This document shows, piece after piece, positions 15,662 through 60,395 of a DNA stretch of 64,000 nt (positions are counted from its first letter, which is position 1; each line of letters starts with the position of its first letter). The notes beneath the pieces are model-generated. The model did no database searches. It was given only the letters and a program-made list of their open reading frames with translations, and had not been told where the DNA came from. The stretch comes from Candidatus Omnitrophota bacterium (GTDB lineage: Bacteria; Omnitrophota; Gorgyraeia; Ghiorseimicrobiales; Ghiorseimicrobiaceae), in contig JAUXSB010000037.1 of assembly GCA_030681595.1 (NCBI GenBank), positions 64,319 through 128,318 on the forward strand, given 5' to 3'. Position numbers and translations under genes: made by a program.

Positions 15662-15684
15662 ATTTTATCTGTAGCGTTTATATT

Positions 15685-23860: not shown

Positions 23861-23922
23861 TTCGTCGACTAAGAGCTCTTAACCTAAAAAAGGCGCTTAA
23901 CTTTACACCTTACGGTATAAAT

Positions 23923-27852: not shown

Positions 27853-27868
27853 AATAGAGTTCTCCTTC

Positions 27869-35231: not shown

Positions 35232-35246
35232 TTATAAATTTTCCCC

Positions 35247-43872: not shown

Positions 43873-44583
43873 TTATAAGGAAGACGTTTTTAAAAAGTAA
43901 CGCTTGCCAGCGCCGATTAATCTTAATAAGAGATAGGCGACATTGTAGATTAGGCATAGCATAAGTGCCAACATCAGTTTATTTGTCAGCCCGCCAAGAA
44001 TAATGATGAATCCATTTATATCGGTGCCTATAGTAAATTCGCGTAAAATTGTCTTTAATATGCCGATTTTATTCTGCGCAGTTCCCATATTTATTTTAGT
44101 ATCAGTATAATTCTTTTTAGATTTTATCGCCAATATCGCTTCTTTTGTCATAAGCGAAACAATAATGTGCTGCAACATAATTACAAAAAAACCCAATGTC
44201 CATACTGTCTCTGGGTTATAATTGCGAGCTAATCCCCAGCAGACCCCGAAATAAATCACCATTTCTAAAATTCTTCCTGATACGCTGTCCAGCCATTCCC
44301 CGCGCTCGGAAACCCTGTTGGTTATTCTTGCCAAGTCTCCATCGACAAAATCTAAAAACCACGCCAGCATATATAATATTGAGCCAAACACCGCTGTCGG
44401 GTATGCTCCGAAAGAATATGAAAATGCCGAGATCATTCCGATTAATAATCCGGCTAACACAATTTGCTCGGGCATAATTTTAGAATTTTTTAGCTTATAT
44501 GCTATAAACCCTGAACCAATACGGATAAATCTATTGATATTGTAATTTGTCTCTTTGAATATATATTTATCAAATCTACCCAT
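43873..44583 (-). CDS. CDP-alcohol phosphatidyltransferase-family membrane protein.
   Basis: 'DFVDGDLARITNRVSERGEWLDSVSG' matches DG-x2-AR-x8-G-x3-D. Confidence 0.7.
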   Translation of the reverse strand: MGRFDKYIFKETNYNINRFIRIGSGFIAYKLKNSKIMPEQIVLAGLLIGMISAFSYSFGAYPTAVFGSILYMLAWFLDFVDGDLARITNRVSERGEWLDSVSGRILEMVIYFGVCWGLARNYNPETVWTLGFFVIMLQHIIVSLMTKEAILAIKSKKNYTDTKINMGTAQNKIGILKTILREFTIGTDINGFIIILGGLTNKLMLALMLCLIYNVAYLLLRLIGAGKRYFLKTSSL

Positions 44584-45331
44584 TTTCTACCTCTAATAAA
44601 GTTACCTCTATCCTGAAAAAACTATCTATAAAGTAAGAGATTATGTTATGGCAATATAAGGACAATAGGCAGCAATACCTCGAAGGCCATGAAATTTTCG
44701 CTTCACCAAACCCTGCCTGTTTTAATAGCTTAATCCAAACTTTGGGCGGCTGGTGTTTACGCCAATTGATATTTGGGCAAAATGGCGAGCGTTTCTTGAA
44801 AATGCCGAAGAAATTCTTATTAGAGTTATCGAGGATGATAAATTTCCCTCTTGGTTTCATTGTGGATTTTACTTTATTAAAAATTCCTAAATACTTACGT
44901 TGTGCGTCTAAATTAGAGTTTAATTTTATACAGGCATTTTCATCAAAATGATTTATGGACATATTCGATAGGACAATATCGAATTTTATTCCGTTAGGGT
45001 TAAAATTTTCTATGGTTTGAGGCAGGCAGTCGATATTATCTAAGTTAAGATTATTGATTAATTCGGTAAATATTTTAGCACTACCAGAGGTACTGCCATC
45101 TACTTCCGGCTCAAGGCCTATTACTCTTTTTGCCCCATTTATTTTTGCCCAGATGCTATAAACTCCATCTCCACAGCCGAGTTCCAGCATTGATTTATCT
45201 TTTAGGTCAATATCTCCAAATACCTGCTTAGCCCGGAATAATAGCTTATTCTTGGATTTATACAGCATATTATCTACTGCTAAAGCCGTGAATTTATTTA
45301 TCAAATCATTATTATTTTCTATCATTTTCAA
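44576..45331 (-). CDS. Class I SAM-dependent methyltransferase.
   Basis: Motif I 'LELGCGDGVYS'. Confidence 0.75.
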   Translation of the reverse strand: MKMIENNNDLINKFTALAVDNMLYKSKNKLLFRAKQVFGDIDLKDKSMLELGCGDGVYSIWAKINGAKRVIGLEPEVDGSTSGSAKIFTELINNLNLDNIDCLPQTIENFNPNGIKFDIVLSNMSINHFDENACIKLNSNLDAQRKYLGIFNKVKSTMKPRGKFIILDNSNKNFFGIFKKRSPFCPNINWRKHQPPKVWIKLLKQAGFGEAKISWPSRYCCLLSLYCHNIISYFIDSFFRIEVTLLEVENG

Positions 45332-47045
45332 GATCCATATTCTTATTACCGTTTAAGTGGATAATCTTAAGCCCGGATATGCCGTTTAGTTGATATTTCT
45401 TGATGATTTCTTCTTCGTTAAGCACATTCTGTGAGTCAAGGTAAATATTACCGATTAAGCTGTTATTTTCAATTGAAATAAACGGATTATTCATAAGAAA
45501 ACGTTTGATGGGTTCTGTTAATTGAGAGATTCGAAAAGCGAAGACATTGCTGACTTTTTTATCAAGTTCTACTTTTGTTTTCCATTTCGCCTTATATCTA
45601 AGCACACCGTCATTCAATAATGCCCGGCTTAGGCCTAAATCTATAGTTTTAAATCCTTTTTCGCTGGCAAATTTAAAATAAAAATAGTATAGCGCGCTAA
45701 AGGCGTCTTTTTTTAACAAGTTGATATCGCCGTTTAATAAGCCAATAAACTTGGGACGGAAGGCGCTGTTGCTTAACTCTATTACCGACCCCGATAGATA
45801 CCTATTTCCATCTTTGGCGAGCAAGAGGCCGCCCTTTTTAAAGCTTCTTTTGACTAAATTAAACGGGCTGATAATTTCTTCGCCATTATAGCGTTTGCGT
45901 ATATACGGCAGGTACATATTTTCATAAAAGAAAACCAATAGTTTTTCATCATTTTTTATAAATTCATAGGTATAGTTGCGAATTTTGGCTGTTCTAATGT
46001 CTTCATAAGCGCTGCGGTCGCGTTTTTTTCTGAAGTCTTTAAGTGAAGCGGGCGTATTAGCCCTTTGTCTAATAAATACCGGCATAAATTTTATATTTTG
46101 CCAAACACCCAGGTTTTTATTAAGATAATCAAATTTTTCTTCGGCTACTGTTAAATCCGTATTTTTCGAGATTTTTTTAAACTCAAGGTTTAATTTCTGC
46201 CTGAGGAATGTTTTAACGCGCTTTGTCACGTAGCCGTCAGGGAAAAGTAAATTGAGCAGTATTCTATTCGGCTTATTTTTGCAGATAAAAGCGGCTTTTA
46301 GGGTGTCTTTGCTTGAAGAATTCTGAATAAGGTATAGCCGTAAAAAAAACCTATAGGCAAGATCTTCAATTTTATCTCTAAGAAGATTAAGGAGGTAAAA
46401 AGGCGTTTTTACCGCTACCATAAAAAGTCTAATTAACGCTCTAGCAATGAGATAAATAGCGTTCCCGATTTTATTGTTTAGGTTACAGGAGAATTTTAAA
46501 CCAAAAAATTTTATTAAAGCCAATTTTTTTATTGGTTCAAACCCTAATTCTTGCGCCATTTTATTGGGAATTAATTCTTGTGTGTCAACTAAGATATGGG
46601 CGTTGTTAAATCTACCTTTAAGTATTTTAAATGCTTCTTGATAAAGCATGTTAGCGATGCCGTTTCCCCTAAATTCCGGTTTTATATACACTCCGTGAAT
46701 ATACGATGAGCTTTCTCTTAGTTTATATTCATATTTAAAAGGCCGAAGCACCTTGGCTATTCCGTCTGGATTTAAGATTGCCCAGCCTATCGGTTCAGAA
46801 TTATTCATTGCAATTAAGGTTTCTGAAGTATCTGTAATCATCGGCATAATTTCTGGATTTAATCTCTCTATTAGATTTATGGGTATTTTTTGGTAATAAT
46901 TTATCTCTAAATTCGGTAAACTATTCTGAGTGATAGGATTTAGCTTGTCAGGGCCAATAGTTGTCAGGTCCTTTCTGTAATGCGCCAATTCTCTTAAGCT
47001 TATTTTGGAAGCGATGATATTTTTAATTATATTGGAAATTTTCAT
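45312..47045 (-). CDS. Two-domain acyltransferase: N-terminal GNAT + C-terminal FemAB-like (Acetyltransf_6).
   Basis: GNAT motif 'HGVYIKPEFRGNGIANMLYQEA'. C-terminal FemAB-like region. Confidence 0.55.
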   Translation of the reverse strand: MKISNIIKNIIASKISLRELAHYRKDLTTIGPDKLNPITQNSLPNLEINYYQKIPINLIERLNPEIMPMITDTSETLIAMNNSEPIGWAILNPDGIAKVLRPFKYEYKLRESSSYIHGVYIKPEFRGNGIANMLYQEAFKILKGRFNNAHILVDTQELIPNKMAQELGFEPIKKLALIKFFGLKFSCNLNNKIGNAIYLIARALIRLFMVAVKTPFYLLNLLRDKIEDLAYRFFLRLYLIQNSSSKDTLKAAFICKNKPNRILLNLLFPDGYVTKRVKTFLRQKLNLEFKKISKNTDLTVAEEKFDYLNKNLGVWQNIKFMPVFIRQRANTPASLKDFRKKRDRSAYEDIRTAKIRNYTYEFIKNDEKLLVFFYENMYLPYIRKRYNGEEIISPFNLVKRSFKKGGLLLAKDGNRYLSGSVIELSNSAFRPKFIGLLNGDINLLKKDAFSALYYFYFKFASEKGFKTIDLGLSRALLNDGVLRYKAKWKTKVELDKKVSNVFAFRISQLTEPIKRFLMNNPFISIENNSLIGNIYLDSQNVLNEEEIIKKYQLNGISGLKIIHLNGNKNMDLENDRK

Positions 47046-47966
47046 TTATTTGCCTTCCAACAATGCTTTAAGGCTATATACACATAATGCCGCGAAAGGA
47101 TTAAGCAGCTTTTTAACTTTCATGATAAATTTATCTTCTTTATAAATAAAATTATTAAATAAGAATATGTCGGCATTTAATGCCTGAAGTAATGAATGCA
47201 AGGCATCCTTATATTTACCTTTTTCATATTGTGCTCTTGCTAACAAATAATATTCAGAAGCTAATCGGTTTTTTATAAGCCGCTTATGCACTTTCATATC
47301 TTTGTCTTTACGTAATTTCTCAAAGGTTTTTACATGGCCGGTATATATTTTTTCGCAATCATTGCAAGTATTATCTGAATGAACCCTGTACTTTATCAAC
47401 GGATCATCAATAAATTTAATCTTGGCAATTTTGGCTATCCTAATCCATAAGTCTTTATCCTCTGAGCCGGATATGGTTTCATCAAACATCCCCGCTTTTT
47501 TTACCAGGTCTTTTTTTACCAAGACAGACATGCAGATATGATAGTTATTTAATAAATCATCAAGGTTTTTAGCCGGATAGCGCGGCCTGACATCACCGGT
47601 AAGCTTACCTTTTGCATCTATCATATATTTAGCAGTATGGATTAAGCCGATACTGTCTTCATTTATCGCCCCCATCTGTTTTTCTAACTTTTCCGGAAGC
47701 CACATATCATCCGAATCTAAAAAAGCCAGGTATTCGCCTTTAGATAAATTTATGCCCAAATTTCTTGCCGCCGATACACCACTGTTTGTTTTATAAACAT
47801 ACTGGATTTTTCCATTATATTTAGCCAAAAGCTCTTTGGTATTATCGGTCGAACCGTCGTCAACCACGATTATTTCGTAGTCTTTGTAGGTTTGCGCTAA
47901 TACGCTGTCTATTGTTTCGCAGATATACTGCGCGCGGTTATAAGTAGGAATAATTACGCTAATCAT
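47046..47966 (-). CDS. GT2 glycosyltransferase.
   Basis: 'ISVIIPTYNRAQYICETIDSVLAQTY...EIIVVDDGSTDNT'. Confidence 0.9.
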   Translation of the reverse strand: MISVIIPTYNRAQYICETIDSVLAQTYKDYEIIVVDDGSTDNTKELLAKYNGKIQYVYKTNSGVSAARNLGINLSKGEYLAFLDSDDMWLPEKLEKQMGAINEDSIGLIHTAKYMIDAKGKLTGDVRPRYPAKNLDDLLNNYHICMSVLVKKDLVKKAGMFDETISGSEDKDLWIRIAKIAKIKFIDDPLIKYRVHSDNTCNDCEKIYTGHVKTFEKLRKDKDMKVHKRLIKNRLASEYYLLARAQYEKGKYKDALHSLLQALNADIFLFNNFIYKEDKFIMKVKKLLNPFAALCVYSLKALLEGK

Positions 47967-47970
47967 TTTC

Positions 47971-49686
47971 TTAAATATACCCTAAGTTTGCAAGACGCTC
48001 CTCAATTTTTTTTGTATCGGTTTTAAAATTAGGGTCACTTTCGCGGTTAAACCTTTCGTTTTCTTCGGTTTTTCCATATTGAATAGTATTTTCTCTAAGA
48101 TAATTATCCGCAATCCCATCCTTTAGGACCTTTCCGTCTAAATTTTTTGGGATAGGTATACCTAAGAGATAAAGGATAGTGGGTACGAGATCGGTTATTT
48201 GCGCGTTTTGTATGGTTTGTGCCTTTTTCAGGTTATTGCCGTAACCGATAACGATGCCGTATTTAGTGTGGGTGCCGGATAATTTTAAGGGTTTCTCAAA
48301 AAATTCCTCTTCATCCTCAATGCTGAAAAACTTATAACTGCCGTCTTCAATTTCAAAAAATAGCTCAGGGGCGCTGTCAATATATGGGCCTGAGTAAATC
48401 TCCTCTTTTTTGTATGTATTTACTTTTAATGGCTGTTTAGTTTCGGGGTCTTTGAGGTTCTTAATTATAGCAATAATCTTATTGGATACTTCAGAGCGTT
48501 TTTCTTCGGTTTTTATAATCCCTTCGGGATTTCTTCCTGCTAAATTAAGGTATACGCTATTATCCGAGATTCCCTTGCTTGCCAGTGTTTTCTTCCAGTT
48601 TATCTTTTGCCAATATCCGTCAGCTATGTTGCTAAGGCGTTTTTCCACTCTTTTTTTTGAAATAATCTTTTTAAGAAGTCTTTTTTGGAATTTCTCCCGC
48701 CCAATTTTTATTAACGACTTTAATTTTCTGTATAAAAATAAATTTTGGTTTAAAAATCCTCTTATTAGATGTAAGGTCTTAGTGGTGCTTCTTTTCAAAG
48801 ACGAGTTATTAGGAACCAAAAGTTTATTACGTTTTAAGATGTTGTCTATGGCAACTTTTTTTTCTAAGTTTCCAAACCCGTGGTCAGACATTATGAATAT
48901 CGAAGTTTGCTCATCAATTTTGTTGATGAATTCCCCTACAATGGAATCAAGTTTTTTATAATAATCAATTATAAACGGGCGTATCTTTTCTGCTTTCTGG
49001 GGGTTGTATCTTGAGTGCGTTTTATCAATATGGTGCCAGTAAAAATGATGAAGCCGGTCTGTGCCCCCAAAAACAATAGTGAGAAAATCCCAGTCAACAT
49101 ATTCCATCAGCTTAAGGCCCACTTCCTTCTTTTGCTCTGTTTCTTTTGTGAGGTCCCTAAAGAAGCCCTCATATTTATCTTCCGCGTAATACCGGGCTTC
49201 AATGTTAAGTATATAGTCGGATTTTTTTATCCCGATTTTATCAAGCAGGTCATTAGGATAGGTAAAATCAAAGTCCGTACTCGGAGTGGTAAGACCGCAA
49301 CCGACCATAACGCCATTTATTTTAAAAGGCGGATAAGTCATGGGAAGATTGACCGAGACGCATATTTTTCCGTATTCAGAAAGTATCTCCATAACAGTTT
49401 TTGCTTTAATATCTGTTGAGGTAACAAGCTCTTTGCCGAACCTTTTATCGTGGTAGGCCTTAAAGAACGCGAAAATCCCATGTTTTCCCGGGTTGACCCC
49501 TGTCATAAACGAGGTCCAGGCAGGAGACGAAAGGCGCGGGATCGTCGATTCAAGCTCACCTGATGCGCCGTTCTCAACAAGGAACTTTAGGTTAGGCAGA
49601 AGCCCTTCTTCCATCCACGGGGTTAAATTTTTAAATGTTGCCCCGTCTAATCCCATTACCATTACTCTCGGTTTGTTTTTAGTCAT
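47971..49686 (-). CDS. Alkaline-phosphatase-superfamily protein, type I phosphodiesterase / nucleotide pyrophosphatase (PF01663)-like; paralog A (571 aa).
   Basis: 'MGLDGATFKNL', 'TIPRLSSPAWTSFMTGVNPGKHGIF' and 'IMSDHGFG' are metal-site motifs. Ends in '...KIEERLANLGYI'. Confidence 0.7.
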   Translation of the reverse strand: MTKNKPRVMVMGLDGATFKNLTPWMEEGLLPNLKFLVENGASGELESTIPRLSSPAWTSFMTGVNPGKHGIFAFFKAYHDKRFGKELVTSTDIKAKTVMEILSEYGKICVSVNLPMTYPPFKINGVMVGCGLTTPSTDFDFTYPNDLLDKIGIKKSDYILNIEARYYAEDKYEGFFRDLTKETEQKKEVGLKLMEYVDWDFLTIVFGGTDRLHHFYWHHIDKTHSRYNPQKAEKIRPFIIDYYKKLDSIVGEFINKIDEQTSIFIMSDHGFGNLEKKVAIDNILKRNKLLVPNNSSLKRSTTKTLHLIRGFLNQNLFLYRKLKSLIKIGREKFQKRLLKKIISKKRVEKRLSNIADGYWQKINWKKTLASKGISDNSVYLNLAGRNPEGIIKTEEKRSEVSNKIIAIIKNLKDPETKQPLKVNTYKKEEIYSGPYIDSAPELFFEIEDGSYKFFSIEDEEEFFEKPLKLSGTHTKYGIVIGYGNNLKKAQTIQNAQITDLVPTILYLLGIPIPKNLDGKVLKDGIADNYLRENTIQYGKTEENERFNRESDPNFKTDTKKIEERLANLGYI

Positions 49687-50923
49687 TTGGCTTAAATTTT
49701 TCTATTGTCTCAATAAGATTATTTTCCAATCTTTCCGTGGCTTTTCCCCATGTCCAGTTTTTATTTATTTCATCCAAGCCTCCTTGGCGTAAAGTCTCAG
49801 CTAATTTTTTATCGGTTAGTAATAATTCAATTGCATTTGCGAGTTCCTTTTTATCCCTATCAACCAGTATACCTGTCTGACCATCTTTTACGCTTTCGCG
49901 AACTCCGGCTTCTCTGACTCCAATAACCGGGGTACCACAGGCCATTGCTTCCAAGGGTATAAAGCCAAATGGCTCCATCAGCGGAACAAATACAACTAGC
50001 GATGCTTGGTTATATAAGCTTACCAATTCTTCATCGCCAACGGACTCTTTAACTTCTAAGTTGACTTTTTTCTTATCCGCGAGTTTTTTTAAATATTCTT
50101 TATTGGTATTGTTAGCGCGCAAACCCGTTAAAATTAGCTTTGGCCTTTTTTCCTTTGTAATAAGCGCTAGCGAATCAATTATAAAATCAAATTGTTTTAT
50201 GTATTGCACGCCGCCTACGGATAAAATAAAATTATCCTTTTGGATGCCTAAATCTCTAAACTTTTCATTATCTACTCCCAGATAGTTAACTTTTGAGTCA
50301 ATACCATAGGCTTTATAGATATATTCGCGCGTATAGTAAGAATTAGTTAATATTCTCATTGCGCTTTTGGCATTTATCCTGTCCATCCTTCCTGTTAACT
50401 TTTTGTCCAATAGATTGATCGTGTCCGATATAAAAACGAATGGATTAAACTTTCGTTTTTTTCCTTCCCCCGTCTTTTTTAGAAACTCTTCTAATGGTTC
50501 ATTGGCGTTTCTTAGGGGCGCATGGCAAAAATAAACATTGGGAATTTTTATATACCTTAAAACATATGGCGCATGTGTAAACCTGCATTGGTCAATAAAG
50601 GCAACATCATAATTTCCGCTGTTTATCTTCTGCGCTAGCTTTTTTGAAACCGCCCGTAACTTATAAAAAAATATTATTTTCTTTAAAAAATTATGAATGC
50701 TTGATAAGACATGATATTTTATCTGAGAGAATTCAAAATTCCTAATTTCAAAAATATGTTTTTTCGCGATGAATCTATCTACGGGCAGGTATCCGTTATC
50801 CCATCCGGAGAATGCGAATAGGTCAAGTTGATGGCCTTTTTTCGACAGCATCCGAGCGAATTCGTAAAATTCCCTTGCTACCCCGCCCTTGCCGGCACAA
50901 TTATTAAAAAGTGCTATCTTCAT
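49679..50923 (-). CDS. GT4 glycosyltransferase.
   Basis: 'MEPFGFIPLEAMACGTPVIG'. Confidence 0.85.
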   Translation of the reverse strand: MKIALFNNCAGKGGVAREFYEFARMLSKKGHQLDLFAFSGWDNGYLPVDRFIAKKHIFEIRNFEFSQIKYHVLSSIHNFLKKIIFFYKLRAVSKKLAQKINSGNYDVAFIDQCRFTHAPYVLRYIKIPNVYFCHAPLRNANEPLEEFLKKTGEGKKRKFNPFVFISDTINLLDKKLTGRMDRINAKSAMRILTNSYYTREYIYKAYGIDSKVNYLGVDNEKFRDLGIQKDNFILSVGGVQYIKQFDFIIDSLALITKEKRPKLILTGLRANNTNKEYLKKLADKKKVNLEVKESVGDEELVSLYNQASLVVFVPLMEPFGFIPLEAMACGTPVIGVREAGVRESVKDGQTGILVDRDKKELANAIELLLTDKKLAETLRQGGLDEINKNWTWGKATERLENNLIETIEKFKPND

Positions 50924-50935
50924 TTATTAGTCCAG

Positions 50936-52621
50936 TTAATCAATATAGCCTAAATCTGCCAGATGTTCCTTAATCTTAACCATTTCTTCCTGGGAATAAA
51001 TTTCATTTATGGGATTATCCTCGCTTTTTGCGGCAGATTCTTTAAAAATAATGGGGTTTTTATTTAAAAAAGATTCCTCGATGCCTTTTTTAAGGACTTT
51101 TCCATCCATATCATTGGGAATTGTCATCCCTAAGAGGCATAGAATGGTAGGGGTAATATCCATGATTGAGGCGTTATTTATCACTATCCCCTTTTTTATG
51201 TTAGGACCTTGCATCATTAAAATTCCTTCGCGGTAATGAAAGTTTGATATTTGTTTTGGTTCATCTATTAAAACTCCGCTATCAGGATCGGTAGAAAATT
51301 TATAACCTGAATTAGGATCTAAAACTAAATCTGGAGCGATATCAAAATAAGGGCCGTGGTATATATCTTGTTTTCTGTATATCTTGAAATTGAGAAGGGT
51401 TTGTGTTTTAGGATCAGATATTCCCTTTAGGGCGTCTATAACTTTATTATAAACATCATCAGCGTTATTTTTAGATTGGTTTATAAATATGGTAGATCCT
51501 GTATCTCCAACAAAGTAAGCTTTAGTTTTTTTCCAATCCACCAAAGAGATAAAATTCATTTGCGAATGGACTCGCTCATCTTTTCCTAAATACTGCGGAT
51601 TTTCATTTCTTTTATTAAGACGGCTTATGTTCTTAATATAATTTTTAAAATTTCGATATAAAGGCGATTTTTGTTGTAGCATGCCTCTTAATTTATCCTG
51701 TAGGCCGATAAGTAGCTTTTTGATTCCGGTTTTTTTTAATTTTAGGAGGTGTAATTTTTTCAGGAGAGTGTTTATATATATATGAGACCTGAATTGCCCA
51801 AAGCCATGATCCGAGATAATAAAAAGATGAGTATCCTTGCCAGCTTTTTCAATAAAATCGCCAACGAACCCGTCTAATTTTGAGAAATAGCCGTTTACGG
51901 CCGATTTTAAGCTATCGTTATAGAGAGGATGACTACGATCGATGTAGTGTAGCATCTTATGTTGGAGCCAGTCAGTTTCGGTAAAGACAACGGTAAATAA
52001 ATCCCAGGTGATTTTTTCCATTAAGCTCAAGGAAAATTTTGCGCGGCTTTCGGTAGATTTTTCCATATCTTTTAAAAACTCTATTTCCATACCCGGTGCA
52101 TAACAACCTAGTCTTTTTACGCTTAATATATAATCTTTTTTATCGAAGCCAAACTTTTGAAATAAATCTGGTGGATAGGTAAACGAACAATCTTTGTTGG
52201 GAGTTAATTGGCAATCGCTGACCATCGCGCCATTAATGGCAAACGGCGGATAAGTGACCGGAATGTTTATGGAAACAACGGTTTTATTTACCGCGCTTAA
52301 TATATGAAATATCGTATCGGATTTTATATCCCTCGAGCTGTTTACCGTAAGCTTTAACTTGCCGCTAAACCCCAGCTTTATAAATCCAAAAATTCCGTGT
52401 TTACCGGGATTTTTACCTGTCATAAACGATGTCCACGCAGGACCGGAATGCGCAGGCAAAGTAGAAAGCAGATCACCGCTTACTCCAGTATCCACCAATT
52501 TTTTTAAGTTTGGCATAATGCCTTCATCTATAAGCGGTTTTAAGACTTTCCATGTGCCACCATCCAAACCGATAACTAAAACTTTCGGTTTATTTTTATT
52601 AATTTTTTCGTTAGTCTGCAT
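50936..52621 (-). CDS. Alkaline-phosphatase-superfamily phosphodiesterase/nucleotide-pyrophosphatase-like protein; paralog B (561 aa).
   Basis: 'IGLDGGTWKVL', 'TLPAHSGPAWTSFMTGKNPGKHGIF', 'IISDHGFG'. Ends in '...IKEHLADLGYID'. Confidence 0.7.
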   Translation of the reverse strand: MQTNEKINKNKPKVLVIGLDGGTWKVLKPLIDEGIMPNLKKLVDTGVSGDLLSTLPAHSGPAWTSFMTGKNPGKHGIFGFIKLGFSGKLKLTVNSSRDIKSDTIFHILSAVNKTVVSINIPVTYPPFAINGAMVSDCQLTPNKDCSFTYPPDLFQKFGFDKKDYILSVKRLGCYAPGMEIEFLKDMEKSTESRAKFSLSLMEKITWDLFTVVFTETDWLQHKMLHYIDRSHPLYNDSLKSAVNGYFSKLDGFVGDFIEKAGKDTHLFIISDHGFGQFRSHIYINTLLKKLHLLKLKKTGIKKLLIGLQDKLRGMLQQKSPLYRNFKNYIKNISRLNKRNENPQYLGKDERVHSQMNFISLVDWKKTKAYFVGDTGSTIFINQSKNNADDVYNKVIDALKGISDPKTQTLLNFKIYRKQDIYHGPYFDIAPDLVLDPNSGYKFSTDPDSGVLIDEPKQISNFHYREGILMMQGPNIKKGIVINNASIMDITPTILCLLGMTIPNDMDGKVLKKGIEESFLNKNPIIFKESAAKSEDNPINEIYSQEEMVKIKEHLADLGYID

Positions 52622-52919
52622 AACCGAGTTCCTTGAGTTTATTGCGTATAGTAGTTAAATCCTGCTGAGTTAATTTAGTTTTGAGCGGTATTTCTGATAA
52701 TGGATGCTTGACGCGGCCCCATGATACTTTTTCCCAGATTCTTTCATGTAGATAAAAAAGTATGATTTTGACAGCTGCCTCTGCAAGCCCCACGCCTATA
52801 GAAAGGGCTATTTTTCTGGTAAAGATAAATACAATAATGGTCGTTGCTACCATTCCGAAAGCCCGCCAGCTGGTTGCCTTTAAGATACTGCGTTTATGTG
52901 TTTCACCCAAGTTTTTCAT
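52611..52919 (-). CDS. DUF2061-like small membrane protein.
   Basis: Two TM helices, 'WRAFGMVATTIIVFIFT' with 'AVKIILFYLHERIW'. Ends in '...IRNKLKELGYAD'. Overlaps both neighbouring genes. Confidence 0.55.
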   Translation of the reverse strand: MKNLGETHKRSILKATSWRAFGMVATTIIVFIFTRKIALSIGVGLAEAAVKIILFYLHERIWEKVSWGRVKHPLSEIPLKTKLTQQDLTTIRNKLKELGYAD

Positions 52920-52920
52920 T

Positions 52921-54198
52921 TTAATTAGTTAAAATCGCCTTTTTGACATCCATTATGCTTTTGATTTTGCTTATATCGCAGTTCTTCGCATATATAAAAG
53001 CATCATCATATGTATGCATACCGTTAAGGTGCGATTTTTCAAAAATATCCGTTTTTTCGGTCCTGCCTTTTAGGTCGTATCCTCGTTTAGGGTGCGCAAT
53101 GATATCAGCGGCGTTATCTAAATACGGCCCCGAATATATCTCTTCCCGGAAGAAAACCCTATCTATTATATTTTCATTCGTTGCAGGATCAGTAAAATTA
53201 AGCAGGCGGTTTTTAATATCTTTTCTTATATTTTGATATTCGCTTTTTTTTACCGTTCCTTTTTCTTCCCTGCCTTCTAAATTTATAAATATCCTTCCCG
53301 GAAGAAGCGAGTAGCAGACTGTGTCTTTATGATATTCGGGTAATTTTGTGCTGCCATTTGTGAATTTTAAGAGTCCTTGTTGTTTAAGCCAGGCATTAAG
53401 TTGAACCTCATAATTTATGCCGCAGAAGCCGTGGTCTGAAAGCATAATAAAGCGGTCTTCGTCGTTGAGTTTGTTTTGAAGCTCATCTATATGCGTATCT
53501 AATTTTGCAAGGAACTTTATGATATCAGGGTAGTATTCGCCTTGCATTTCCAAGTCATTCCAGAAGAAGTGGAATAATCTGTCGGTTTCCATAATATGCA
53601 ACTGGAAATAGTCCCATTCTTTGTTCTTAAACAATTCAAGCGCAATCTCAAAGCGCTTGTCCGTAGCTAGGAAAAGCTCATCCATTAATTTTCTTTTGTT
53701 TTCTTTGGCTAAGCCCGCGTCTACATCAATAATATAGTTTTTTTCTTTAAGGTATCCGGAAAAATCTGCCGGATAGGTAGATTTATTAATATCGGTGCAG
53801 AGAAAACAGGATGTAAGAATTCCGTTAACTTGTTCGGGTGGATAAGTCAATGGCACATTAATTACGATTACTTTTTTACCTTGCGCGGAAAATTCCTGCC
53901 AGATGGTTTTTGCGCGTCTTTCGCGCGCAGTAGGAATAGTTATTTGAAATGGGTTAGGGGTTCTATCCACAAAACCGAAGATATTGTGCTCTGCGGGGTT
54001 TTGCCCTGTGGCAAAGCTTGTCCAGGCAACAGATGAAACAACAGGATAAACCGAATCCATTCTTTTAGTTAAATTTTGTTTGGTGAAACTTGACAATTTA
54101 GGCATATTTTCCTGAATGAACCTATCCTGTAAAAAAGAATATGGAAAGCCGTCTATGCCTAATACAAATGTTCGTTTTTTATTTTTTCCAAATAACAT
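52921..54198 (-). CDS. Alkaline-phosphatase-superfamily phosphodiesterase/nucleotide-pyrophosphatase-like protein; paralog C (425 aa, short form).
   Basis: 'LGIDGFPYSFL', 'VYPVVSSVAWTSFATGQNPAEHNIF', 'MLSDHGFCG'. Confidence 0.7.
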   Translation of the reverse strand: MLFGKNKKRTFVLGIDGFPYSFLQDRFIQENMPKLSSFTKQNLTKRMDSVYPVVSSVAWTSFATGQNPAEHNIFGFVDRTPNPFQITIPTARERRAKTIWQEFSAQGKKVIVINVPLTYPPEQVNGILTSCFLCTDINKSTYPADFSGYLKEKNYIIDVDAGLAKENKRKLMDELFLATDKRFEIALELFKNKEWDYFQLHIMETDRLFHFFWNDLEMQGEYYPDIIKFLAKLDTHIDELQNKLNDEDRFIMLSDHGFCGINYEVQLNAWLKQQGLLKFTNGSTKLPEYHKDTVCYSLLPGRIFINLEGREEKGTVKKSEYQNIRKDIKNRLLNFTDPATNENIIDRVFFREEIYSGPYLDNAADIIAHPKRGYDLKGRTEKTDIFEKSHLNGMHTYDDAFIYAKNCDISKIKSIMDVKKAILTN

Positions 54199-54205
54199 CT
54201 TATTC

Positions 54206-55441
54206 TCACTCTGTATTGGTTATTATGCCGCCGGCGGAGATATTCTCGTTTTTCACTAATACAAAGCGCCCTATTTCGCGGATGTTTTTAAAAGTGTCAA
54301 TTACTATCGGTTTTTTGGTCTTAATGGTTACTTCGCCTATTTCTAAGTTTTCTAAACCTTGCGCGTCCGTTTCTAACAACTCTAAGCTTGAAGAGTTAAT
54401 CCGTTTATGTATCGCTTCAATTTTGCAGCTTACTTCCTGCGTTGCGCAGCGCAAGATAACCTTTTCGTCTTTACTATAGCCCTGTTTAGACATCCAGAAG
54501 ACGCTGGCGTGGAATCTATCGGAAACCTTAGGCGCTTTATCTTTTTCGCACAAGATATTGCCTCTATCTAAAAATACCGCATCCTCTGTGGTTATGCCTG
54601 TGCTTTCTTGCGCAGATGCGCGTTTAGGGCTCTCTAAATATTTTTCAATGGTTTTTACTTTGGTGGTTTGCCCTTCAGGCAATATCTTAACTTCCTGGCC
54701 TTCTCTTATCTCTCCTGTTTCAACTCTGCCTACAATAATGCGCTTATCATCTACTTTGTATATATCTTGAACGGGAAAGATAAGCGGCTGGTTTTCTTCT
54801 GCCACCTTGTTTTTAAGAAGATCAAGGCTTTCTAACATTGTAGGGCCTTTATACCAAGGCATATTAGTTGATTTATTGGCGATATTATCGCCTTTTAAGG
54901 CAGAAATGGGTATATAGAGTTTTGGCGTTATGTTTAAGGTAGTTAAGAATTTTTCTAGCTTAGTTCTTAGTTCTGTGTATTTTTCCTCGCTAAAATCTAT
55001 TAAATCAGCTTTATTTATTAATACTATCACCTGCTCTATTCCCAGCATAGAAAGTATAGTAGCGTGGCGCTTAGTCTGTTCCTGTATGCCTTCTTTTGCA
55101 TCTATTATTAAGATAGCTGCTTCGGCTTGAGAGGCGCCGGTAATCATATTTTTTACGAACTCCACATGCCCCGGCGCATCAATGATTACATATTCTCTTT
55201 TATCGGTTTTAAAGAAAACTTGCGTTGTATCAATAGTAATTCCCTGCCTGCGTTCTTCTTCTAAGTGGTCAAGAAGATAGGCGAATTCTGTATCTCTGCC
55301 TAAATCTTTGGAAGTATTTCTTATTTCTTCCATTTTATCCGGAGGCAAAGAATTAGTGTCGTAAAGCAGGCGGCCGATTAAGGTTGACTTTCCGTGGTCT
55401 ACGTGGCCGACGATGACGAATTTGAGTGTTTGATTATCCAT
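54206..55441 (-). CDS. cysN: Sulfate adenylyltransferase subunit 1 (GTPase CysN). No fused APS-kinase domain.
   Basis: '[15 protein letters not shown]', 'DAPGH', 'NKAD' G-motifs. 411 aa. Confidence 0.85.
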
Positions 55442-55442
55442 A

Positions 55443-56243
55443 TTACATATACCCCAATGATCTCAATTTCTGCATCATATAGGCGGATTCTTTGTCTTGG
55501 GCGCGTCCGCTTCTCTCTGACACTGTAGAAGTTTTTAGCTCTTCTATTATTTTGTCTATCGTGTCTGCATCGGAATCCACAGGGTTACAGCAGGTTTCGC
55601 AGCCGATACTTCTGTAACGTTTGCCGTTTTTTGCAAAATATAGCGATGTAATCGGGATATTTTCCCGCCTGACATATTCCCAGATGTCTATTTCCCGCCA
55701 GCTAAGCAAAGGATGGATTCTTAAGTGTTCTTCGTCTTTCGCCTTTGATTTATACTGATCCCATAATTCAGGCGGCTGGTCTTTATAATTCCACTCAAAG
55801 TCTTCATCGCGGGGTGAGAAAAACCTTTCTTTTGCCCGTATTCCGTGTTCATCACGCCTGATGCCTAAATACAGGGCTTTAAAGCCGTATTTTGCTATTG
55901 CGTCTTTTAAGGCGTTTGTTTTAAGCTCGGTACAGCAGGTTAATTTTTGCTTATCCGGCCCTACGCCATGCCGCATAGCTTCTTCGTTTTTGTGCACAAG
56001 GAGATTAAGGTTCCATTTTTTGGCATATTCATCGCGGAATTGGTAAATTTCCTTAAATTTATATCCTGTATCTATATGAAGCACAGGAAAAGGTAATTTT
56101 CCGTAAAATGCTTTGCGCACCATCCACAAAAGAGCAGTGGAATCCTTGCCGATAGACCAGAGCATGGCGACTTTTTTAAATTGATAATATGCTTCGCGGA
56201 TGATAAAAATACTTTCATTCTCTAATTTTGTAAGGTTATCCAT
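55443..56243 (-). CDS. cysD: Sulfate adenylyltransferase subunit 2 (CysD, PAPS-reductase fold).
   Basis: '[15 protein letters not shown]' PP-loop. C-terminus '...QKLRSLGYM' is like E. coli CysD '...LKKRQGYF'. Confidence 0.85.
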
Positions 56244-56952
56244 TTACGGCCCCTATTTTAATTTGTTTTTTTATCCTATTTTTCAAAACTTGCTCTACAG
56301 CAGGCAAATTTTCGTATGTTGTTATCTTTATATTTTCATATATTGACGGGACTAATGCCACTTTAGAGCCAATTCGCTTCACTAAATCCACGATCGGCCG
56401 ATTGGTTAGCGTGTTTTCTTTGGCGTATTCCAGCGCTTTAACGATTATTTCAAATTTATATGCTTGAGGAGCGCAGGTATAGGCAAGAGAGTCGCGCTCT
56501 AATACAGTTTCAATTTCATTATTAATCATACTCACTACTGTATGCCGCGCCGCAAGATAAGCTGTGCAGGCGCCATATTTTTTAGCGGCATTGATGCAAT
56601 TTTTTATCAATTCAGGGGGCGTGGTAGGGCTGGCCCCGTCTTGTATTACTACTATATCTGCTTTATCTATTGCCATTACCCCGTTTTCTACTGAATCTTG
56701 GCGGGTTAAACCGCCCGGCACAAGTTTTCTTAATTTCTTAAAACTATACCTCTCTAATATCTCGTTATATTTTTGCGCATAATTTTGATTTATTACTAAA
56801 TATATATCGTCTATTTCCTCTATGTTTTCGTAGATTTCTATTGTATGGATAAAAACTGCTTTCCCCAGTAACTCATAGAATTGCTTGGGCGATTCTAATT
56901 CCTTTATTCTACTGCCGCTTCCGCCGGTTAATATTATGGCTGAACAGCTCAT
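56236..56952 (-). CDS. IspD/TarI-family cytidylyltransferase (CDP-alcohol synthase candidate).
   Basis: 'AIILTGGSGSRIKELESPKQF' resembles the nucleotide-binding loop of IspD / TarI. Confidence 0.65.
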   Translation of the reverse strand: MSCSAIILTGGSGSRIKELESPKQFYELLGKAVFIHTIEIYENIEEIDDIYLVINQNYAQKYNEILERYSFKKLRKLVPGGLTRQDSVENGVMAIDKADIVVIQDGASPTTPPELIKNCINAAKKYGACTAYLAARHTVVSMINNEIETVLERDSLAYTCAPQAYKFEIIVKALEYAKENTLTNRPIVDLVKRIGSKVALVPSIYENIKITTYENLPAVEQVLKNRIKKQIKIGAVNG

Positions 56953-56953
56953 T

Positions 56954-57661
56954 TTAACTTTGCCCCCGGTGAATTTTAGAAAAAGCCGCCATTGCTTTTA
57001 TGCTTTCGTAAAAATAGTAAAGCCATACGTATATGCTAGATAGAATAAGCGTATAATATAATTTATTTAAAATACTTCCGATGATGATTAAATAACAAAT
57101 TCCCATATAAACATCGGTTATTTCCCTGATGATTGTCCTTAAAATGCCTATCTTATCCGTCTGCATCTGGTTAGGATTTGGTTTATTCGCTTGAGGGTTA
57201 TTTTTTAGTTCCAAGAGCTGGCGCTTAAATATAAGCGACTGAAAACCAAAAAACCCTGCCATAATAATAAAACCCAAAAGCCAAATAAATCCCACATTAT
57301 ATAGTTTTGCCTGTCCTAAACATATGCCCAGATATGCTAAAATAAAGGCAAGCTTTCCTGCTATGCTGTCAAATAACTCACCGGTAACGGTTTCACGTCC
57401 AAGGCATCGCGCAAGGTCGCCGTCAAGATGATCAAGCACCATAAATAGAATAAAAAATAGCAACGCAAAGAGATTAAAGATATTGGAGGCAAAAGAATAA
57501 AACAACGCTGAAAGAATGCAGCAAGCCAGCGATAGTGTGGTAATCTGATTAGGAGTAAATTTTATTTTTAATGCCGGCTTTAGCAGGAAGCGCTGCGAAA
57601 TAAACCGCGCCGCCTTTCCTAATAGATATTTGCTTTTTCTGGGGGGTTTTTTTACATTCAT
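56954..57661 (-). CDS. CDP-alcohol phosphatidyltransferase-family membrane protein (second copy).
   Basis: 'DHLDGDLARCLGRETVTGELFDSIAG'. Confidence 0.7.
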   Translation of the reverse strand: MNVKKPPRKSKYLLGKAARFISQRFLLKPALKIKFTPNQITTLSLACCILSALFYSFASNIFNLFALLFFILFMVLDHLDGDLARCLGRETVTGELFDSIAGKLAFILAYLGICLGQAKLYNVGFIWLLGFIIMAGFFGFQSLIFKRQLLELKNNPQANKPNPNQMQTDKIGILRTIIREITDVYMGICYLIIIGSILNKLYYTLILSSIYVWLYYFYESIKAMAAFSKIHRGQS

Positions 57662-57663: not shown

Positions 57664-58626
57664 TTATTCTGCCATAGCGCTTGCTATTTTGGCAGGCGAT
57701 AGTTGTTGTGTACCCATATACCAGTCAATAGTTTTTGCGAGGCCGTCATAAAGATTAACTTCAGATTTATAATTTAAAATATTATATGCTTTTGAGGTGT
57801 CGCAAAGTGTCTTAGAAATAGTATCTTCAAATAGCGGCAAGAACTTGGGCGCCTGGTTCTTGCCGCATATTTTGTTTACGTAACTAACCATATTATAAAT
57901 AGTGCAATTTGTTCCTGTGCCGGTGTTAAATACATCAAATTTTACTTTTTTAAGCTGCGTGGCTAAGATATTTGCTTCCACCGCATCATCAATATAAGTA
58001 AAATCGCGCAGAAAATGCGGTTGGGTATAGAGTAAAGGTTCTTTGTTGTTTGCGATGCTTTCGATAGCCATGCCGATAAAGCCATCCTTTAAGGACTGCC
58101 GCGGCCCATAGACAGAAAAATGCCTTAGCGATATCGTTTCAATGCCGTATCTATCGCTGAAAAACTTACAGTAGTTTTCCGCGACAAATTTACTTAAGGC
58201 ATAAGGCGTCAGCAGATTTGGTGAATGCGTCTCTGACTGGGGGAAAATCTTAGAGCTTCCATAGATTTTAGCCGAGGATGAAAAAATAAAGCGCCTGACG
58301 CTATTAGTGACAGCGGCTTGCAGCATATTTAGTGTTCCATTGGCATTGATTTGGATTGTTTTAACAGGGTTTTCTACCGATGACCTTATTGAAGCAATGG
58401 CCGCATTATGAAATATTACGTCAATATCCTGGCAAGCCTGCGCGCATATATCCGTATCCAGTATATCGCCGTTGATTATTTCAAGTTGCGAGCTATCAAA
58501 AGACTTAAAATCCGATATTTTGCTGGTAGATAAATTATCCAGTATCCTTACAAAATTACCTTCCTTAAGAAGCCTTTCAGTAATATGCGAACCGATAAAT
58601 CCAAGTCCGCCAGTTACTAGGCAACG
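57664..58626 (-). CDS. NAD-dependent epimerase/dehydratase (extended SDR).
   Basis: 'MRCLVTGGLGFIGSHI' Rossmann motif and YxxxK 'YALSK'. Confidence 0.8.
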   Translation of the reverse strand, partial: RCLVTGGLGFIGSHITERLLKEGNFVRILDNLSTSKISDFKSFDSSQLEIINGDILDTDICAQACQDIDVIFHNAAIASIRSSVENPVKTIQINANGTLNMLQAAVTNSVRRFIFSSSAKIYGSSKIFPQSETHSPNLLTPYALSKFVAENYCKFFSDRYGIETISLRHFSVYGPRQSLKDGFIGMAIESIANNKEPLLYTQPHFLRDFTYIDDAVEANILATQLKKVKFDVFNTGTGTNCTIYNMVSYVNKICGKNQAPKFLPLFEDTISKTLCDTSKAYNILNYKSEVNLYDGLAKTIDWYMGTQQLSPAKIASAMAE

Positions 58627-58643
58627 CATAAAATTAACCTCCT

Positions 58644-59531
58644 TCAAATTCCTGGCCAAACAGGCTGCTGCTCCATCCAGTCAAACAGTTGCTCATAGAC
58701 ATCTTTATGTATCCTGGCCCACTTGATAATTTTTTCGAGCTGCTTCCTGCTTTTTGCAATTGGAATATTCACTCCTGCCCATTTAAATAGGCCTTCTAAT
58801 TTATGAGTATTGACTCTAAATATTGCAAAGGGTATGCGTGCTTTAGACGCCGCATATACGCCGTGGTGTTGGCCTGTAATATAGATATTGGCATTGCGCA
58901 GGCTGCTGACAATGTAGGACCAGTCAGCGATACTGTCTAAACGCTCTGCTTCTCCTCCAAAATTTAATCTGGGCATGCCCGTAAACATAGGGTGCGTATG
59001 GTCAAATGCGTCAAATCTATGCATATTTCTAGGATAAAAGGTACCCACGACATCCTTTCCTGAAAATTGACCTGATTCCTTAGATTCATCAACCTTATAT
59101 GAATAGCTTAAGTCAAGGTACATCTGCGGCTTAACGCCTTGTGTTTTCTCCATTTCTTTTTGACTGCAAATTTCTCTTACCCATAAACCGTCTAATGATT
59201 TTAATACATTTCTCCATCCGGGATTCATTTTCTGCCATACGCAGTTTATTAAATATGCCTTTTTACCTAGTTGCTTGGCTAATTTTAACCCTTCAAGAAG
59301 GCTGCTCGCGCGTCCCTTGTGCCAGCTGGTTCTCTCGTTATTTAACGCCCCTTCGCCATTTACTATAATAGCATCGCATTCGTGGATTGCTTTTAGGTCG
59401 GGTCCGTGTGGCCTGAGCGTAGAACAAGTAATATCATGGCCTTTAGCAATAAGCTTCTCTCTAAGTGAAGCCATTGCAGCCCAGCTGCCAGCGTGATATC
59501 TAGATGTATCATTAGCGATATATACTTTCAT
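58644..59531 (-). CDS. Hypothetical protein (polysaccharide-modification candidate; weak resemblance to pyruvyl-transferase-like proteins).
   Basis: ORF only. No confident motif. Confidence 0.35.
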   Translation of the reverse strand: MKVYIANDTSRYHAGSWAAMASLREKLIAKGHDITCSTLRPHGPDLKAIHECDAIIVNGEGALNNERTSWHKGRASSLLEGLKLAKQLGKKAYLINCVWQKMNPGWRNVLKSLDGLWVREICSQKEMEKTQGVKPQMYLDLSYSYKVDESKESGQFSGKDVVGTFYPRNMHRFDAFDHTHPMFTGMPRLNFGGEAERLDSIADWSYIVSSLRNANIYITGQHHGVYAASKARIPFAIFRVNTHKLEGLFKWAGVNIPIAKSRKQLEKIIKWARIHKDVYEQLFDWMEQQPVWPGI

Positions 59532-59612: not shown

Positions 59613-60395
59613 TCACTTTGTAATGTCGTGCCCGCTTCCGCTGTTTCTACCCGTTGCGCACCCCCCGGGGTGCGTATGGTTGTATTGTCCAAAGGTATAT
59701 TCCAAGTTTTTGAGGTCGTTTATCATCTGGTTGTGAAATTCAGGTAGATATTCTAATATGATATTGCCGTTCCAGCCGCTTTCTTTCAAATAGCCCACTA
59801 TGTCTTTACAAAAATCGTCAATAGGCAGGTGATGTTTTTCGCTCCCCTTAGAAGAAAGATGGACATTTACAATATTTTCTTTGTAGTTTTTAACTAAATG
59901 CCAGATTTTTTCATTATCTTCTATGTGGGCAGCATCCAGCGTCATTGGTAAGTTAAATTTGACTATTTCATCGGGGTCAAAAACTCTTCTTTTTCCAGTA
60001 AAAGTTTCGATGCTAAAAATAATTTTTCCTTTATATAATTGGTTAAAATACCTTAAATTTTGAAGCGCTTTCTTTTGATTGATTTGGTTTTTGTTTGTAT
60101 TATTTGGATGCAGCGTTATGATCCCCACATTTAGCAGTATTGCGAAGTCGGCTATTTCTTTCCCCCATATCTTAAATTCTTCATTTGTAAGAGGCGCTTG
60201 TACCGCGTGGATAGACAAAATTTCCGTGGAAAAACTTTTTATTTTTTCAGCGATTACTTTTAAATGCGGCCTAATTGGATTATAAATATCCCGATAATAG
60301 GGTAATGCTAATTCAATAGGCGTATTTAAGCCGGATAGCCTTTCTTCTATTTGTTCGATGTTTTCAAATGATTGTCTAATCCCAAATTTTAACAT
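59613..60395 (-). CDS. Hypothetical protein, possibly a xylose-isomerase-like TIM-barrel sugar-phosphate isomerase/epimerase.
   Basis: ORF only. The assignment is weak. Confidence 0.3.
   Translation of the reverse strand: MLKFGIRQSFENIEQIEERLSGLNTPIELALPYYRDIYNPIRPHLKVIAEKIKSFSTEILSIHAVQAPLTNEEFKIWGKEIADFAILLNVGIITLHPNNTNKNQINQKKALQNLRYFNQLYKGKIIFSIETFTGKRRVFDPDEIVKFNLPMTLDAAHIEDNEKIWHLVKNYKENIVNVHLSSKGSEKHHLPIDDFCKDIVGYLKESGWNGNIILEYLPEFHNQMINDLKNLEYTFGQYNHTHPGGCATGRNSGSGHDITK

Follow-up and report, generated by a model that had tools for sequence, protein, structure and literature searches.

The family of membrane enzymes known as cytidine diphosphate (CDP)-alcohol phosphotransferases (CDP-APs) shares the signature D1xxD2G1xxAR...G2xxxD3xxxD4, whose eight residues have been termed absolutely conserved. 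D1 to D3 bind metal, D4 is an Mg-2 ligand and the presumed catalytic base, and the conservative replacement of D4 by Asn (D93N) in the phosphatidylinositol-phosphate (PIP) synthase of Mycobacterium tuberculosis almost abolishes activity and leaves substrate binding unaffected (PMC4634129, PMC6506517). Two members of the family from Archaeoglobus fulgidus, AF2299 and IPCT-DIPPS, have a small hydrophilic donor pocket (PMC4634129). In capsule biosynthesis, pairs of PF01128 and PF01370 genes make CDP-alditols via a CDP-ketose, as in HS5.18/HS5.17 of Campylobacter jejuni (product, CDP-6-D-glucitol) and Mnp1/Mnp2 of Streptococcus pneumoniae (PMC10918830). Here, we describe a 64-kb window (the whole stretch of DNA analyzed, from a contig of a Candidatus Omnitrophota metagenome-assembled genome [MAG]) in which the genes for an IspD-family cytidylyltransferase and a CDP-AP-fold membrane protein, CDP-AP1, stand side by side in an exopolysaccharide (EPS) locus that also encodes a paralogue, CDP-AP2. 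On balance, we lean toward the view that these proteins form a head-group activation and transfer module within a Wzx/Wzy-dependent EPS pathway. The genes concerned, and the short-chain dehydrogenase/reductase (SDR) gene next to the pair, are as follows.

57664-58629, minus strand: extended SDR, GalE/WbpP-like (PF01370, 181 bits)
56954-57661, minus strand: CDP-AP1, 235 aa (PF01066 CDP-OH_P_transf, E = 7.2e-14, 52.9 bits against a cut-off of 22)
56236-56952, minus strand: IspD-family cytidylyltransferase, 238 aa (PF01128, E = 2.1e-36, 126 bits against a cut-off of 27)
43873-44583, minus strand: CDP-AP2, 236 aa (PF01066, E = 4.3e-10, 40.6 bits against a cut-off of 22)

Pfam placed the three open reading frames (ORFs) that a preliminary description of this DNA had singled out, the cytidylyltransferase and the two CDP-APs, in the families it named, and these matches lie far beyond chance. 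The Pfam scan covered window ORFs of at least 120 to 150 aa plus a 102-aa DUF2061 ORF; a few window ORFs, 15685-16416 among them, fell outside it. A single nucleotide separates the stop codon of CDP-AP1 from the ATG of the IspD-like gene, an operon-like spacing. The SDR likely starts at ATG 58629 and not at TTG 58659, because a GGAGG ribosome-binding site precedes that ATG. CDP-AP1 and CDP-AP2 are paralogues (37% identity over 180 aa; BLASTP E = 2e-30). An NCBI protein of a Candidatus Omnitrophota MAG matches CDP-AP1 with 100% identity. The ratio of nonsynonymous to synonymous substitution rates (dN/dS) against orthologs was 0.12 to 0.19 in all four genes tested (0.19 for CDP-AP1 against its ortholog in locus L002; 0.12 for CDP-AP2), which indicates purifying selection.

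AF2299 and IPCT-DIPPS are the best sequence and fold matches of the window CDP-APs, with which they share a juxtamembrane helix and a core of six transmembrane (TM) helices, the motif D1xxD2GxxAR...GxxxD3, a DG followed by an acidic residue (DGD in the window, DGE in AF2299 and IPCT-DIPPS), and coupling to a cytidylyltransferase, which is fused in the A. fulgidus proteins and also in five near relatives of the window CDP-APs. However, the window CDP-APs have Gly at D4, and in place of a fused IPCT-type domain the window has a cytidylyltransferase of the IspD family as a protein of its own. The setting differs as well: compatible-solute synthesis for the A. fulgidus proteins, and here a bacterial Wzx/Wzy EPS locus, with no sign in the window of inositol-phosphate synthesis. 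PIP synthases (RsPIPS and M. tuberculosis PgsA1) resemble the window proteins in fold, in the signature up to D3, and in a basic residue after the D4 position, but they use a lipid donor, CDP-diacylglycerol, and D4 is essential in them.

The logic of the proposed module is also that of TarI/TarJ with TarK/TarL, of Bcs1, and of ISPD with FKTN/FKRP, in which an IspD-family enzyme makes a CDP-polyol and the polyol phosphate is transferred to a glycan. The window differs in that its IspD-like protein scores below the TarI cut-off and its candidate transferase is an integral-membrane PF01066 protein of a different fold. To our knowledge, every known glycan polyol-phosphate transferase is TagF-like or LicD/fukutin-like, of another fold than PF01066. 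The TagF-like FtaD of C. difficile was called a "CDP-AP" in the functional sense in a recent preprint, which noted that the classical motif is absent. The chemistry of the window locus had been called teichoic-acid-like in the preliminary description, and this holds as an analogy only: among the window ORFs scanned with Pfam, there was no TagF-like (Glyphos_transf) or LicD/fukutin-like transferase. Within these ORFs, nothing other than the CDP-APs thus qualifies as a candidate consumer of a CDP-activated head group.

Conservation of the gene pair

Searches by k-mer with the three proteins gave 7, 48, and 7 matches, with close relatives confined to Omnitrophota, and scans of genomes and metagenomes gave 17 and 3 loci, respectively. 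The close family occurs in three independent arrangements only, and co-occurrence statistics are thin. In every relative recovered, across all three arrangements, the CDP-AP and IspD-like genes are adjacent. The order is SDR, CDP-AP, IspD in the window and in loci L002 and L022; CDP-AP, IspD, SDR in L001 (43% and 53% identity); and SDR, Wzx, CDP-AP, IspD, family 2 glycosyltransferase (GT2) in L003, L021, and L023 (Omnitrophica WOR_2), where the Wzx gene lies directly upstream of the pair. The SDR is at most one gene away from the pair in all three. Genes for Wzz/GNVR, a tyrosine-kinase-type ATPase, more GT2 and GT4 enzymes, and a methyltransferase are also present in L003. The 150 nearest CDP-AP representatives include 10 multidomain proteins, and 5 of these have an N-terminal NTP_transf_3 or NTP_transferase domain, a fusion pattern like that of IPCT-DIPPS. 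In MAGs of Syntrophorhabdus, Syntrophobacterales, and Troglogloeales, the genes for remoter CDP-APs of the same clade, in which D4 is kept, are flanked by GT2 and GT4 genes.

Because the adjacency is kept in three rearranged Omnitrophota loci and nucleotidyltransferase-CDP-AP fusions occur in near relatives, the comparative evidence supports the cytidylyltransferase and the CDP-AP as a functional unit in a glycan-assembly locus. The window CDP-APs would use a soluble CDP-alcohol, since AF2299 and IPCT-DIPPS, their closest solved relatives, do so with a fused cytidylyltransferase or cytidylyltransferase-like domain. The earlier proposal that a CDP-polyol is made and its polyol phosphate passed to the glycan therefore stands as far as the pair is a unit in a glycan locus, as adjacency and fusions indicate, and not as far as ribitol or glycerol is concerned (see below).

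Judged by gene content, the surroundings are a large Wzx/Wzy, PEP-CTERM/exosortase EPS locus, as first described, and the minus strand carries every gene from ~26.4 kb to 63.3 kb of the window. The components on which this assignment rests, together with the genes around CDP-AP2, are the following.

45312-47045, minus strand: 577-aa GNAT fusion (Acetyltransf_1 at residues 71 to 156, then ~390 aa), syntenic in L020
44576-45331, minus strand: class I S-adenosylmethionine-dependent methyltransferase adjoining CDP-AP2 (Methyltransf_23/31/25/11), syntenic in L020
42533-43867, minus strand: CapK-like (PaaK/F390-synthetase-type) adenylate-forming ligase (NCBIfam DVU_1553 family, FlxY, and PaaK, all below cut-off)
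41069-42520, minus strand: Wzx flippase (Polysacc_synt_3, 262 bits)
37542-38972, minus strand: Wzy-type polymerase (Wzy_C, 77.5 bits)
27043-27948, minus strand: exosortase EpsH
26411-27028, minus strand: EpsI
25207-26064, minus strand: Bac_transf priming phosphoglycosyltransferase (PF02397, 209.7 bits)
22743-24855, minus strand: PEP-CTERM proteins

CDP-AP2 thus lies between the CapK-like ligase and the methyltransferase, where the preliminary description had put it, and L020 has the same block of GT2, GNAT fusion, methyltransferase, CDP-AP2, and CapK, its CDP-AP showing 66% identity to CDP-AP2. The CapK-like ligase more likely starts at 43867 than at 43957, the start of the longest ORF, because an ATG stands there 5 nt past the CDP-AP2 stop and the L020 ortholog, in which CapK_C (PF27533) is present, has the same start. 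The C-terminal ~390 aa of the GNAT fusion gave no Pfam or PDB match.

Fold and signature of the CDP-APs

An AlphaFold 2 model of CDP-AP1 (mean predicted local distance difference test score [pLDDT], 81) has a juxtamembrane helix and six TM helices (residues 12-31, 36-54, 59-86, 91-117, 122-153, 165-196, and 200-232 in all). Its best fold matches in the PDB are AF2299, Renibacterium PIP synthase, M. tuberculosis PgsA1, and IPCT-DIPPS, with query-normalized TM-scores of 0.5 to 0.64, and a profile-to-PDB search agrees (AF2299, 73 bits; IPCT-DIPPS, 42 bits). The signature reads DHLDGDLAR-CLGRETVT-G-ELF-D-SIA-G in CDP-AP1 and DFVDGDLAR-ITNRVSER-G-EWL-D-SVS-G in CDP-AP2. At the start of TM1, the cytosine-binding motif P(D/N)xx(T/S) is fitted by PNQIT in CDP-AP1 and not by PEQIV in CDP-AP2. 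The name CDP-alcohol phosphotransferase, as used before, is therefore right for the PF01066 family and fold, but neither protein is canonical, D4 being Gly in both. As read from the sequence, the two are CDP-AP-fold homologues with an apparently intact CDP and metal site in which one defining feature of the family has failed. With Gly at D4, deprotonation of the acceptor must proceed differently.

The same Gly is found in the five closest homologues of CDP-AP1 (P0002 to P0006), in P0010, and in nearly all of the ~16 best representative matches. In a profile search of 1.84 billion representatives, E <= 1e-30 was reached by only 14 proteins and E <= 1e-10 by 3,319. Of the 131 single-domain representatives that are nearest, 84 have Asp at D4, 32 Gly, 6 His, 5 Asn, 2 Ser, 1 Cys, and 1 Thr; at the other seven signature positions, there is almost no variation in the Asp class or in the Gly class. 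The variability at D4 suggests that this clade is independent of the residue. No acidic residue follows the D4 position on that helix in CDP-AP1. Of the 32 Gly-class proteins, 16 have Glu at the position of Glu180, where predicted TM5 ends on the cytoplasmic side, and the Asp class mostly has Y, H, N, or F there; with Lys146 and Lys153, Glu180 co-varies with the Gly class among the same 131 representatives. Glu180 is thus a candidate substitute carboxylate, and its co-variation could equally come from shared ancestry.

Apart from a glycan, the acceptor could be a lipid. The CDP-APs would then move the phosphorylated head group (phospho-X) from CDP-X to diacylglycerol or another lipid, as choline/ethanolamine phosphotransferases do, or use CDP-diacylglycerol to build a phosphatidyl anchor, and the product would be a head-group lipid or an anchor or primer for the EPS. 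The characterized PF01066 enzymes, those of the DIPPS type excepted, all make membrane lipids (PMC4634129), and the NCBIfam models nearest to both window proteins are inositol-phosphate-type synthases (archaetidylinositol-phosphate and PIP synthases), though at 34 to 38 bits against a cut-off of 170. In addition, a basic residue stands right after the D4 position (GK or GR) in all eight aligned family members, as in inositol-phosphate-using enzymes; its counterpart in PgsA1 is R94, the residue of the acceptor phosphate/anion site (PMC6506517). Nevertheless, the nearest structures, AF2299 and DIPPS, take soluble donors, the linkage to Wzx and glycosyltransferases is tight in unrelated arrangements, and two paralogues stand in one EPS operon. 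Scores against the PgsA and PssA models (22 to 28 bits; cut-offs, 107 to 109 bits) and the cardiolipin synthase model are also very weak. We consider a lipid product unlikely. A role of the CDP-APs in priming the lipid-linked unit is conceivable but unnecessary, because a Bac_transf priming transferase is present.

It is also conceivable that proteins of this kind, lacking D4, carry out no phosphotransfer and serve as CDP- or CMP-binding scaffolds, regulators, or substrate-presenting partners. The effect of D93N described above would agree with this, as would Gly in both paralogues and in the closest homologues of CDP-AP1. However, the near invariance of D1, D2, G1, A, R, G2, and D3 in the Gly class is what would be expected of a working metal and CDP site, the genes are under purifying selection, and D4 varies widely among the 131 nearest representatives. 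The paired cytidylyltransferase would, moreover, have no consumer among the scanned ORFs. These points make loss of catalysis improbable in our view, more so than a lipid product, and we continue with the CDP-APs as candidate transferases of a glycan head group.

Cytidylyltransferase, SDR, and proposed pathway

The IspD-like protein scores below the NCBIfam cut-offs for IspD (TIGR00453, 153.5 versus 181.3; NF001186, 154.4 versus 253) and for TarI (NF001183, 117.3 versus 166). In the PDB, Bacillus subtilis IspD is its best match (107.6 bits), and chains of TarI and human ISPD follow at 63 to 75 bits. A collection of 5.8 billion proteins holds six relatives at 57 to 100% identity, the named sources of which are all Omnitrophota; the next are at <=40%. 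In B. subtilis IspD, CTP is contacted by the P-loop Gly, Arg15, Lys22, Gly80, Ser86, Asp104, and Lys209 (PMC5099578), and in the alignment all of these contact residues are kept in the window protein (R15, K23, GG 80-81, S87, D105, and K209). Two other motifs are altered: QDGASPTT replaces HDxxRP, and TNRPIV, with a 2-aa insertion, replaces TD(D/E). The Arg of HDxxRP is lost in all seven clade members (QDG(A/S)(S/N/D)PTT in six; HDGANPTT, with the His kept, in L001) and kept in 44/44 of the other IspD, TarI/Bcs1-like, and HS5.18-like sequences compared. Throughout the clade, TD(D/E)(A/C)(S/G) has become T(N/D)(R/K/Q)(P/S)(I/T)V with the two-residue insertion. Arg-157 and Asp-261/262 of Arabidopsis thaliana IspD border the CTP-ribose site and the pocket for MEP (2-C-methyl-D-erythritol 4-phosphate) (PMC11770629), and we infer that they are equivalent to the residues altered here.

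The clade is monophyletic in 286 of 300 neighbor-joining (NJ) bootstrap replicates and is not nested in IspD; the E. coli IspD in this tree serves as a landmark only. In the midpoint-rooted tree, the clade lies beside the HS5.18 clade, but with a bootstrap value of 24% (sister in 73/300 replicates, against 0/300 for the Bcs1-like group). HS5.18/HS5.17 and the window share the layout of a PF01128 cytidylyltransferase next to a PF01370 extended SDR in a polysaccharide locus. They differ in that identity is only 28% to HS5.18 (79 bits) and 29% to HS5.17 (62 bits), HS5.18 keeps the HDxxRP Arg, the window SDR is GalE-like with an NAD+-type Asp motif, and the window transferase belongs to the CDP-AP family. 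The IspD-like protein is most likely an active cytidylyltransferase with a substrate other than MEP and ribitol-5-phosphate. The ribitol or glycerol head group of the preliminary description finds no support in the sub-cut-off TarI score or in the lost Arg; the outcome that it named as refuting, a cytidylyltransferase among the MEP-pathway IspD proteins, does not arise, judged within the 64-kb window, on the separate clade, the altered motifs, and the sub-cut-off scores.

That housekeeping genes, an MEP-pathway IspD and ordinary PgsA/PssA-like phospholipid synthases, simply happen to lie in this locus is very improbable: although the top NCBIfam and PDB matches are to IspD and the genome view is limited to the 64-kb window, the protein falls below every IspD equivalog cut-off, its clade as a whole has lost the HDxxRP Arg and TDD and is recovered in nearly all replicates, its gene always stands beside a CDP-AP gene and EPS genes, the CDP-APs fall far short of the PgsA/PssA cut-offs, and no ispE, ispF, or other MEP gene was present among the window ORFs scanned.

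The SDR carries GGLGFIG, an NAD+-type ILDNLSTS, the catalytic set of Ser and YxxxK, and the motifs LRHFSVYGPRQ and RDFTYIDD, the last two of which we take to be characteristic of enzymes like GalE and WbpP. In the PDB, it is matched best by UDP-hexose and UDP-HexNAc 4-epimerases, led by the UDP-glucose 4-epimerase of Thermotoga maritima (4zrm, 184 bits). No TarJ-type (ADH_zinc) or Bcs1-type (adh_short) reductase was found among the scanned window ORFs, the GalE-like SDR being the only one. The gene had been put forward as a candidate for a polyol-phosphate dehydrogenase; its sequence marks it instead as a GalE/WbpP-type NAD+ extended SDR without TarJ-type or Bcs1-type identity. It is somewhat more probably an ordinary nucleotide-sugar epimerase co-inherited with the module; action on CDP-X itself is the less probable option, though a plausible one.

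From gene content and order, homologies, motif states, conservation of the pair, and purifying selection, we infer the following chemical steps, including X, the acceptor, and any role of the SDR. The soluble IspD-family enzyme would join CTP and X-phosphate, forming CDP-X with release of pyrophosphate. The probable choices for X are an open-chain sugar, ketose, or polyol phosphate, or else some other phosphate with hydroxyl or amino groups; MEP is unlikely, and ribitol-5-phosphate is not indicated. The SDR might then reduce or epimerize CDP-X, as in pathways from CDP-ketose to CDP-alditol, and this step is the uncertain one. On the cytoplasmic side of the membrane, CDP-AP1 would use D1, D2, D3, and the DGxxAR helix to bind CDP-X and Mg2+ and would transfer phospho-X to a hydroxyl of the undecaprenyl-diphosphate-linked repeat unit, begun by the Bac_transf enzyme and extended by glycosyltransferases, with release of CMP. 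The acceptor could be activated by D3, a metal-bound water, the clade-specific Glu180, or substrate assistance, or the nucleophile could already be anionic. CDP-AP2 would catalyze the same reaction, either at a second site or with an acceptor whose tailoring differs. Finally, the decorated unit would be flipped by Wzx, polymerized by Wzy, and exported by the exosortase-associated machinery.

Several observations weigh against this pathway. Both window CDP-APs have Gly in place of D4, the remaining 7/8 signature residues being present, and the SDR is far nearer to UDP-hexose 4-epimerases than to the CDP-ketose reductase HS5.17. All contexts of the pair come from one phylum, so that common descent makes the synteny argument look stronger than it is. 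The sequence of the IspD-like enzyme does not reveal its substrate, and the confinement of the genome view to the window, noted above, counts here as well. In the literature outside subscription-only papers, we found no PF01066 enzyme that acts on a glycan or uses CDP-ribitol. Even so, on the comparisons made here the module is real, rare, and mechanistically intriguing, with CDP-APs and an IspD-like protein that deviate at family-defining residues.

A bolder and more doubtful extension of the proposed pathway is that these proteins represent a third class of glycan phospho-head-group enzymes beside the TagF-like and LicD/fukutin-like ones. Members of this class would be integral-membrane proteins, related to phospholipid synthases, whose action on lipid-linked sugar units needs no catalytic Asp, with a CDP head group not yet described and an IspD relative whose substrate pocket has been rebuilt. 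The base would be Glu180 or the substrate, or the nucleophile would need no base, for example, a phosphomonoester giving a diphosphodiester linkage.

Other genes of the locus and significance of the module

ManC, a TIM-barrel protein, and a pyruvyl-transferase-like protein (the latter two weak matches) are encoded beside the SDR, CDP-AP1, and IspD-like genes. The EPS locus also holds CysD, CysN, three PF01663 proteins, a DUF2061 protein, GT4 and GT2 enzymes, a deacetylase, a FemAB-type GNAT, further glycosyltransferases, a radical SAM/SPASM enzyme, and a PcRGLX-like protein. Features of the locus beyond those given above are listed here; the genes at 29050-36407 are unusual ones for an EPS locus.

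60555-61797, minus strand: insertion between ManC and the TIM-barrel gene, made up of a DUF6036 nucleotidyltransferase (61207-61797) and an overlapping 250-aa ORF without a family match
59613-60395, minus strand: weak AP_endonuc_2 TIM-barrel protein (best NCBIfam match CbiR, a cobamide-remodelling phosphodiesterase, 31 bits, below cut-off)
58644-59531, minus strand: weak pyruvyl-transferase-like protein adjoining the TIM-barrel gene
55443-56243, minus strand: CysD
54206-55441, minus strand: GTPase-only CysN
52921-54198, 50936-52621, and 47971-49686, minus strand: three paralogous PF01663 "Phosphodiest" proteins (alkaline-phosphatase superfamily), no predicted TM helix
52611-52919, minus strand: small DUF2061 membrane protein
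35247-36407, minus strand: radical SAM/SPASM enzyme
32187-35231, minus strand: 1014-aa GT4/polysaccharide-deacetylase/GT4 fusion
29050-32190, minus strand: 1046-aa PcRGLX-like (rhamnogalacturonan-lyase-like) protein with a hydrophobic N terminus
27869-29053, minus strand: last GT4, followed by the exosortase gene; the PcRGLX-like gene lies just upstream of both
8457-15661 and 21968-24855, minus strand: exosortase accessories, namely, a PrsK/PrsR-like histidine kinase and sigma-54 response regulator, a TPR protein, a 900-aa AMP-ligase/acyl carrier protein/acyltransferase fusion, a FeeM-like N-acyl amino acid synthase, and two PEP-CTERM proteins

The TIM-barrel and pyruvyl-transferase-like genes lie directly upstream of the SDR/CDP-AP/IspD trio and are conserved there only in the close relative L002; their products could supply or tailor the head group. 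PDB and Pfam searches gave nothing usable for the TIM-barrel protein or for the 250-aa ORF. The insertion that holds this ORF splits the EPS operon, and L003 is likewise split (12329-17331), by AbiEii-toxin and AAA_14/DUF4143 genes; toxin-antitoxin or defense-like insertions seem to be recurrent in such EPS loci.

A motif scan revealed no P-loop of the adenosine 5'-phosphosulfate (APS) kinase type in the window, and no sulfotransferase family was found among the scanned ORFs. The locus may sulfate its EPS unconventionally, for example, by using APS directly with alkaline-phosphatase-superfamily enzymes. We also considered that a CDP-AP makes a lipid from which the three PF01663 proteins relay phospho-X, as with LtaS, OpgB, or EptA, and rejected this as the main model, since these proteins have no TM helix or signal-like hydrophobic N terminus.

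If the module works as proposed, membrane enzymes of the phospholipid-synthase type have been recruited to decorate polysaccharides, and a further enzyme family would become available for predicting charged substituents of capsules, O antigens, and EPS from sequence. A natural clade would then manage without D4, a residue that about a third of the nearest representatives lack, and this bears on the mechanism of drug targets such as M. tuberculosis PgsA1. For the uncultured Omnitrophota, the module would point to a heavily modified anionic EPS, in a locus that also encodes sulfate activation and pyruvyl- and acetyl-transferase-like genes.

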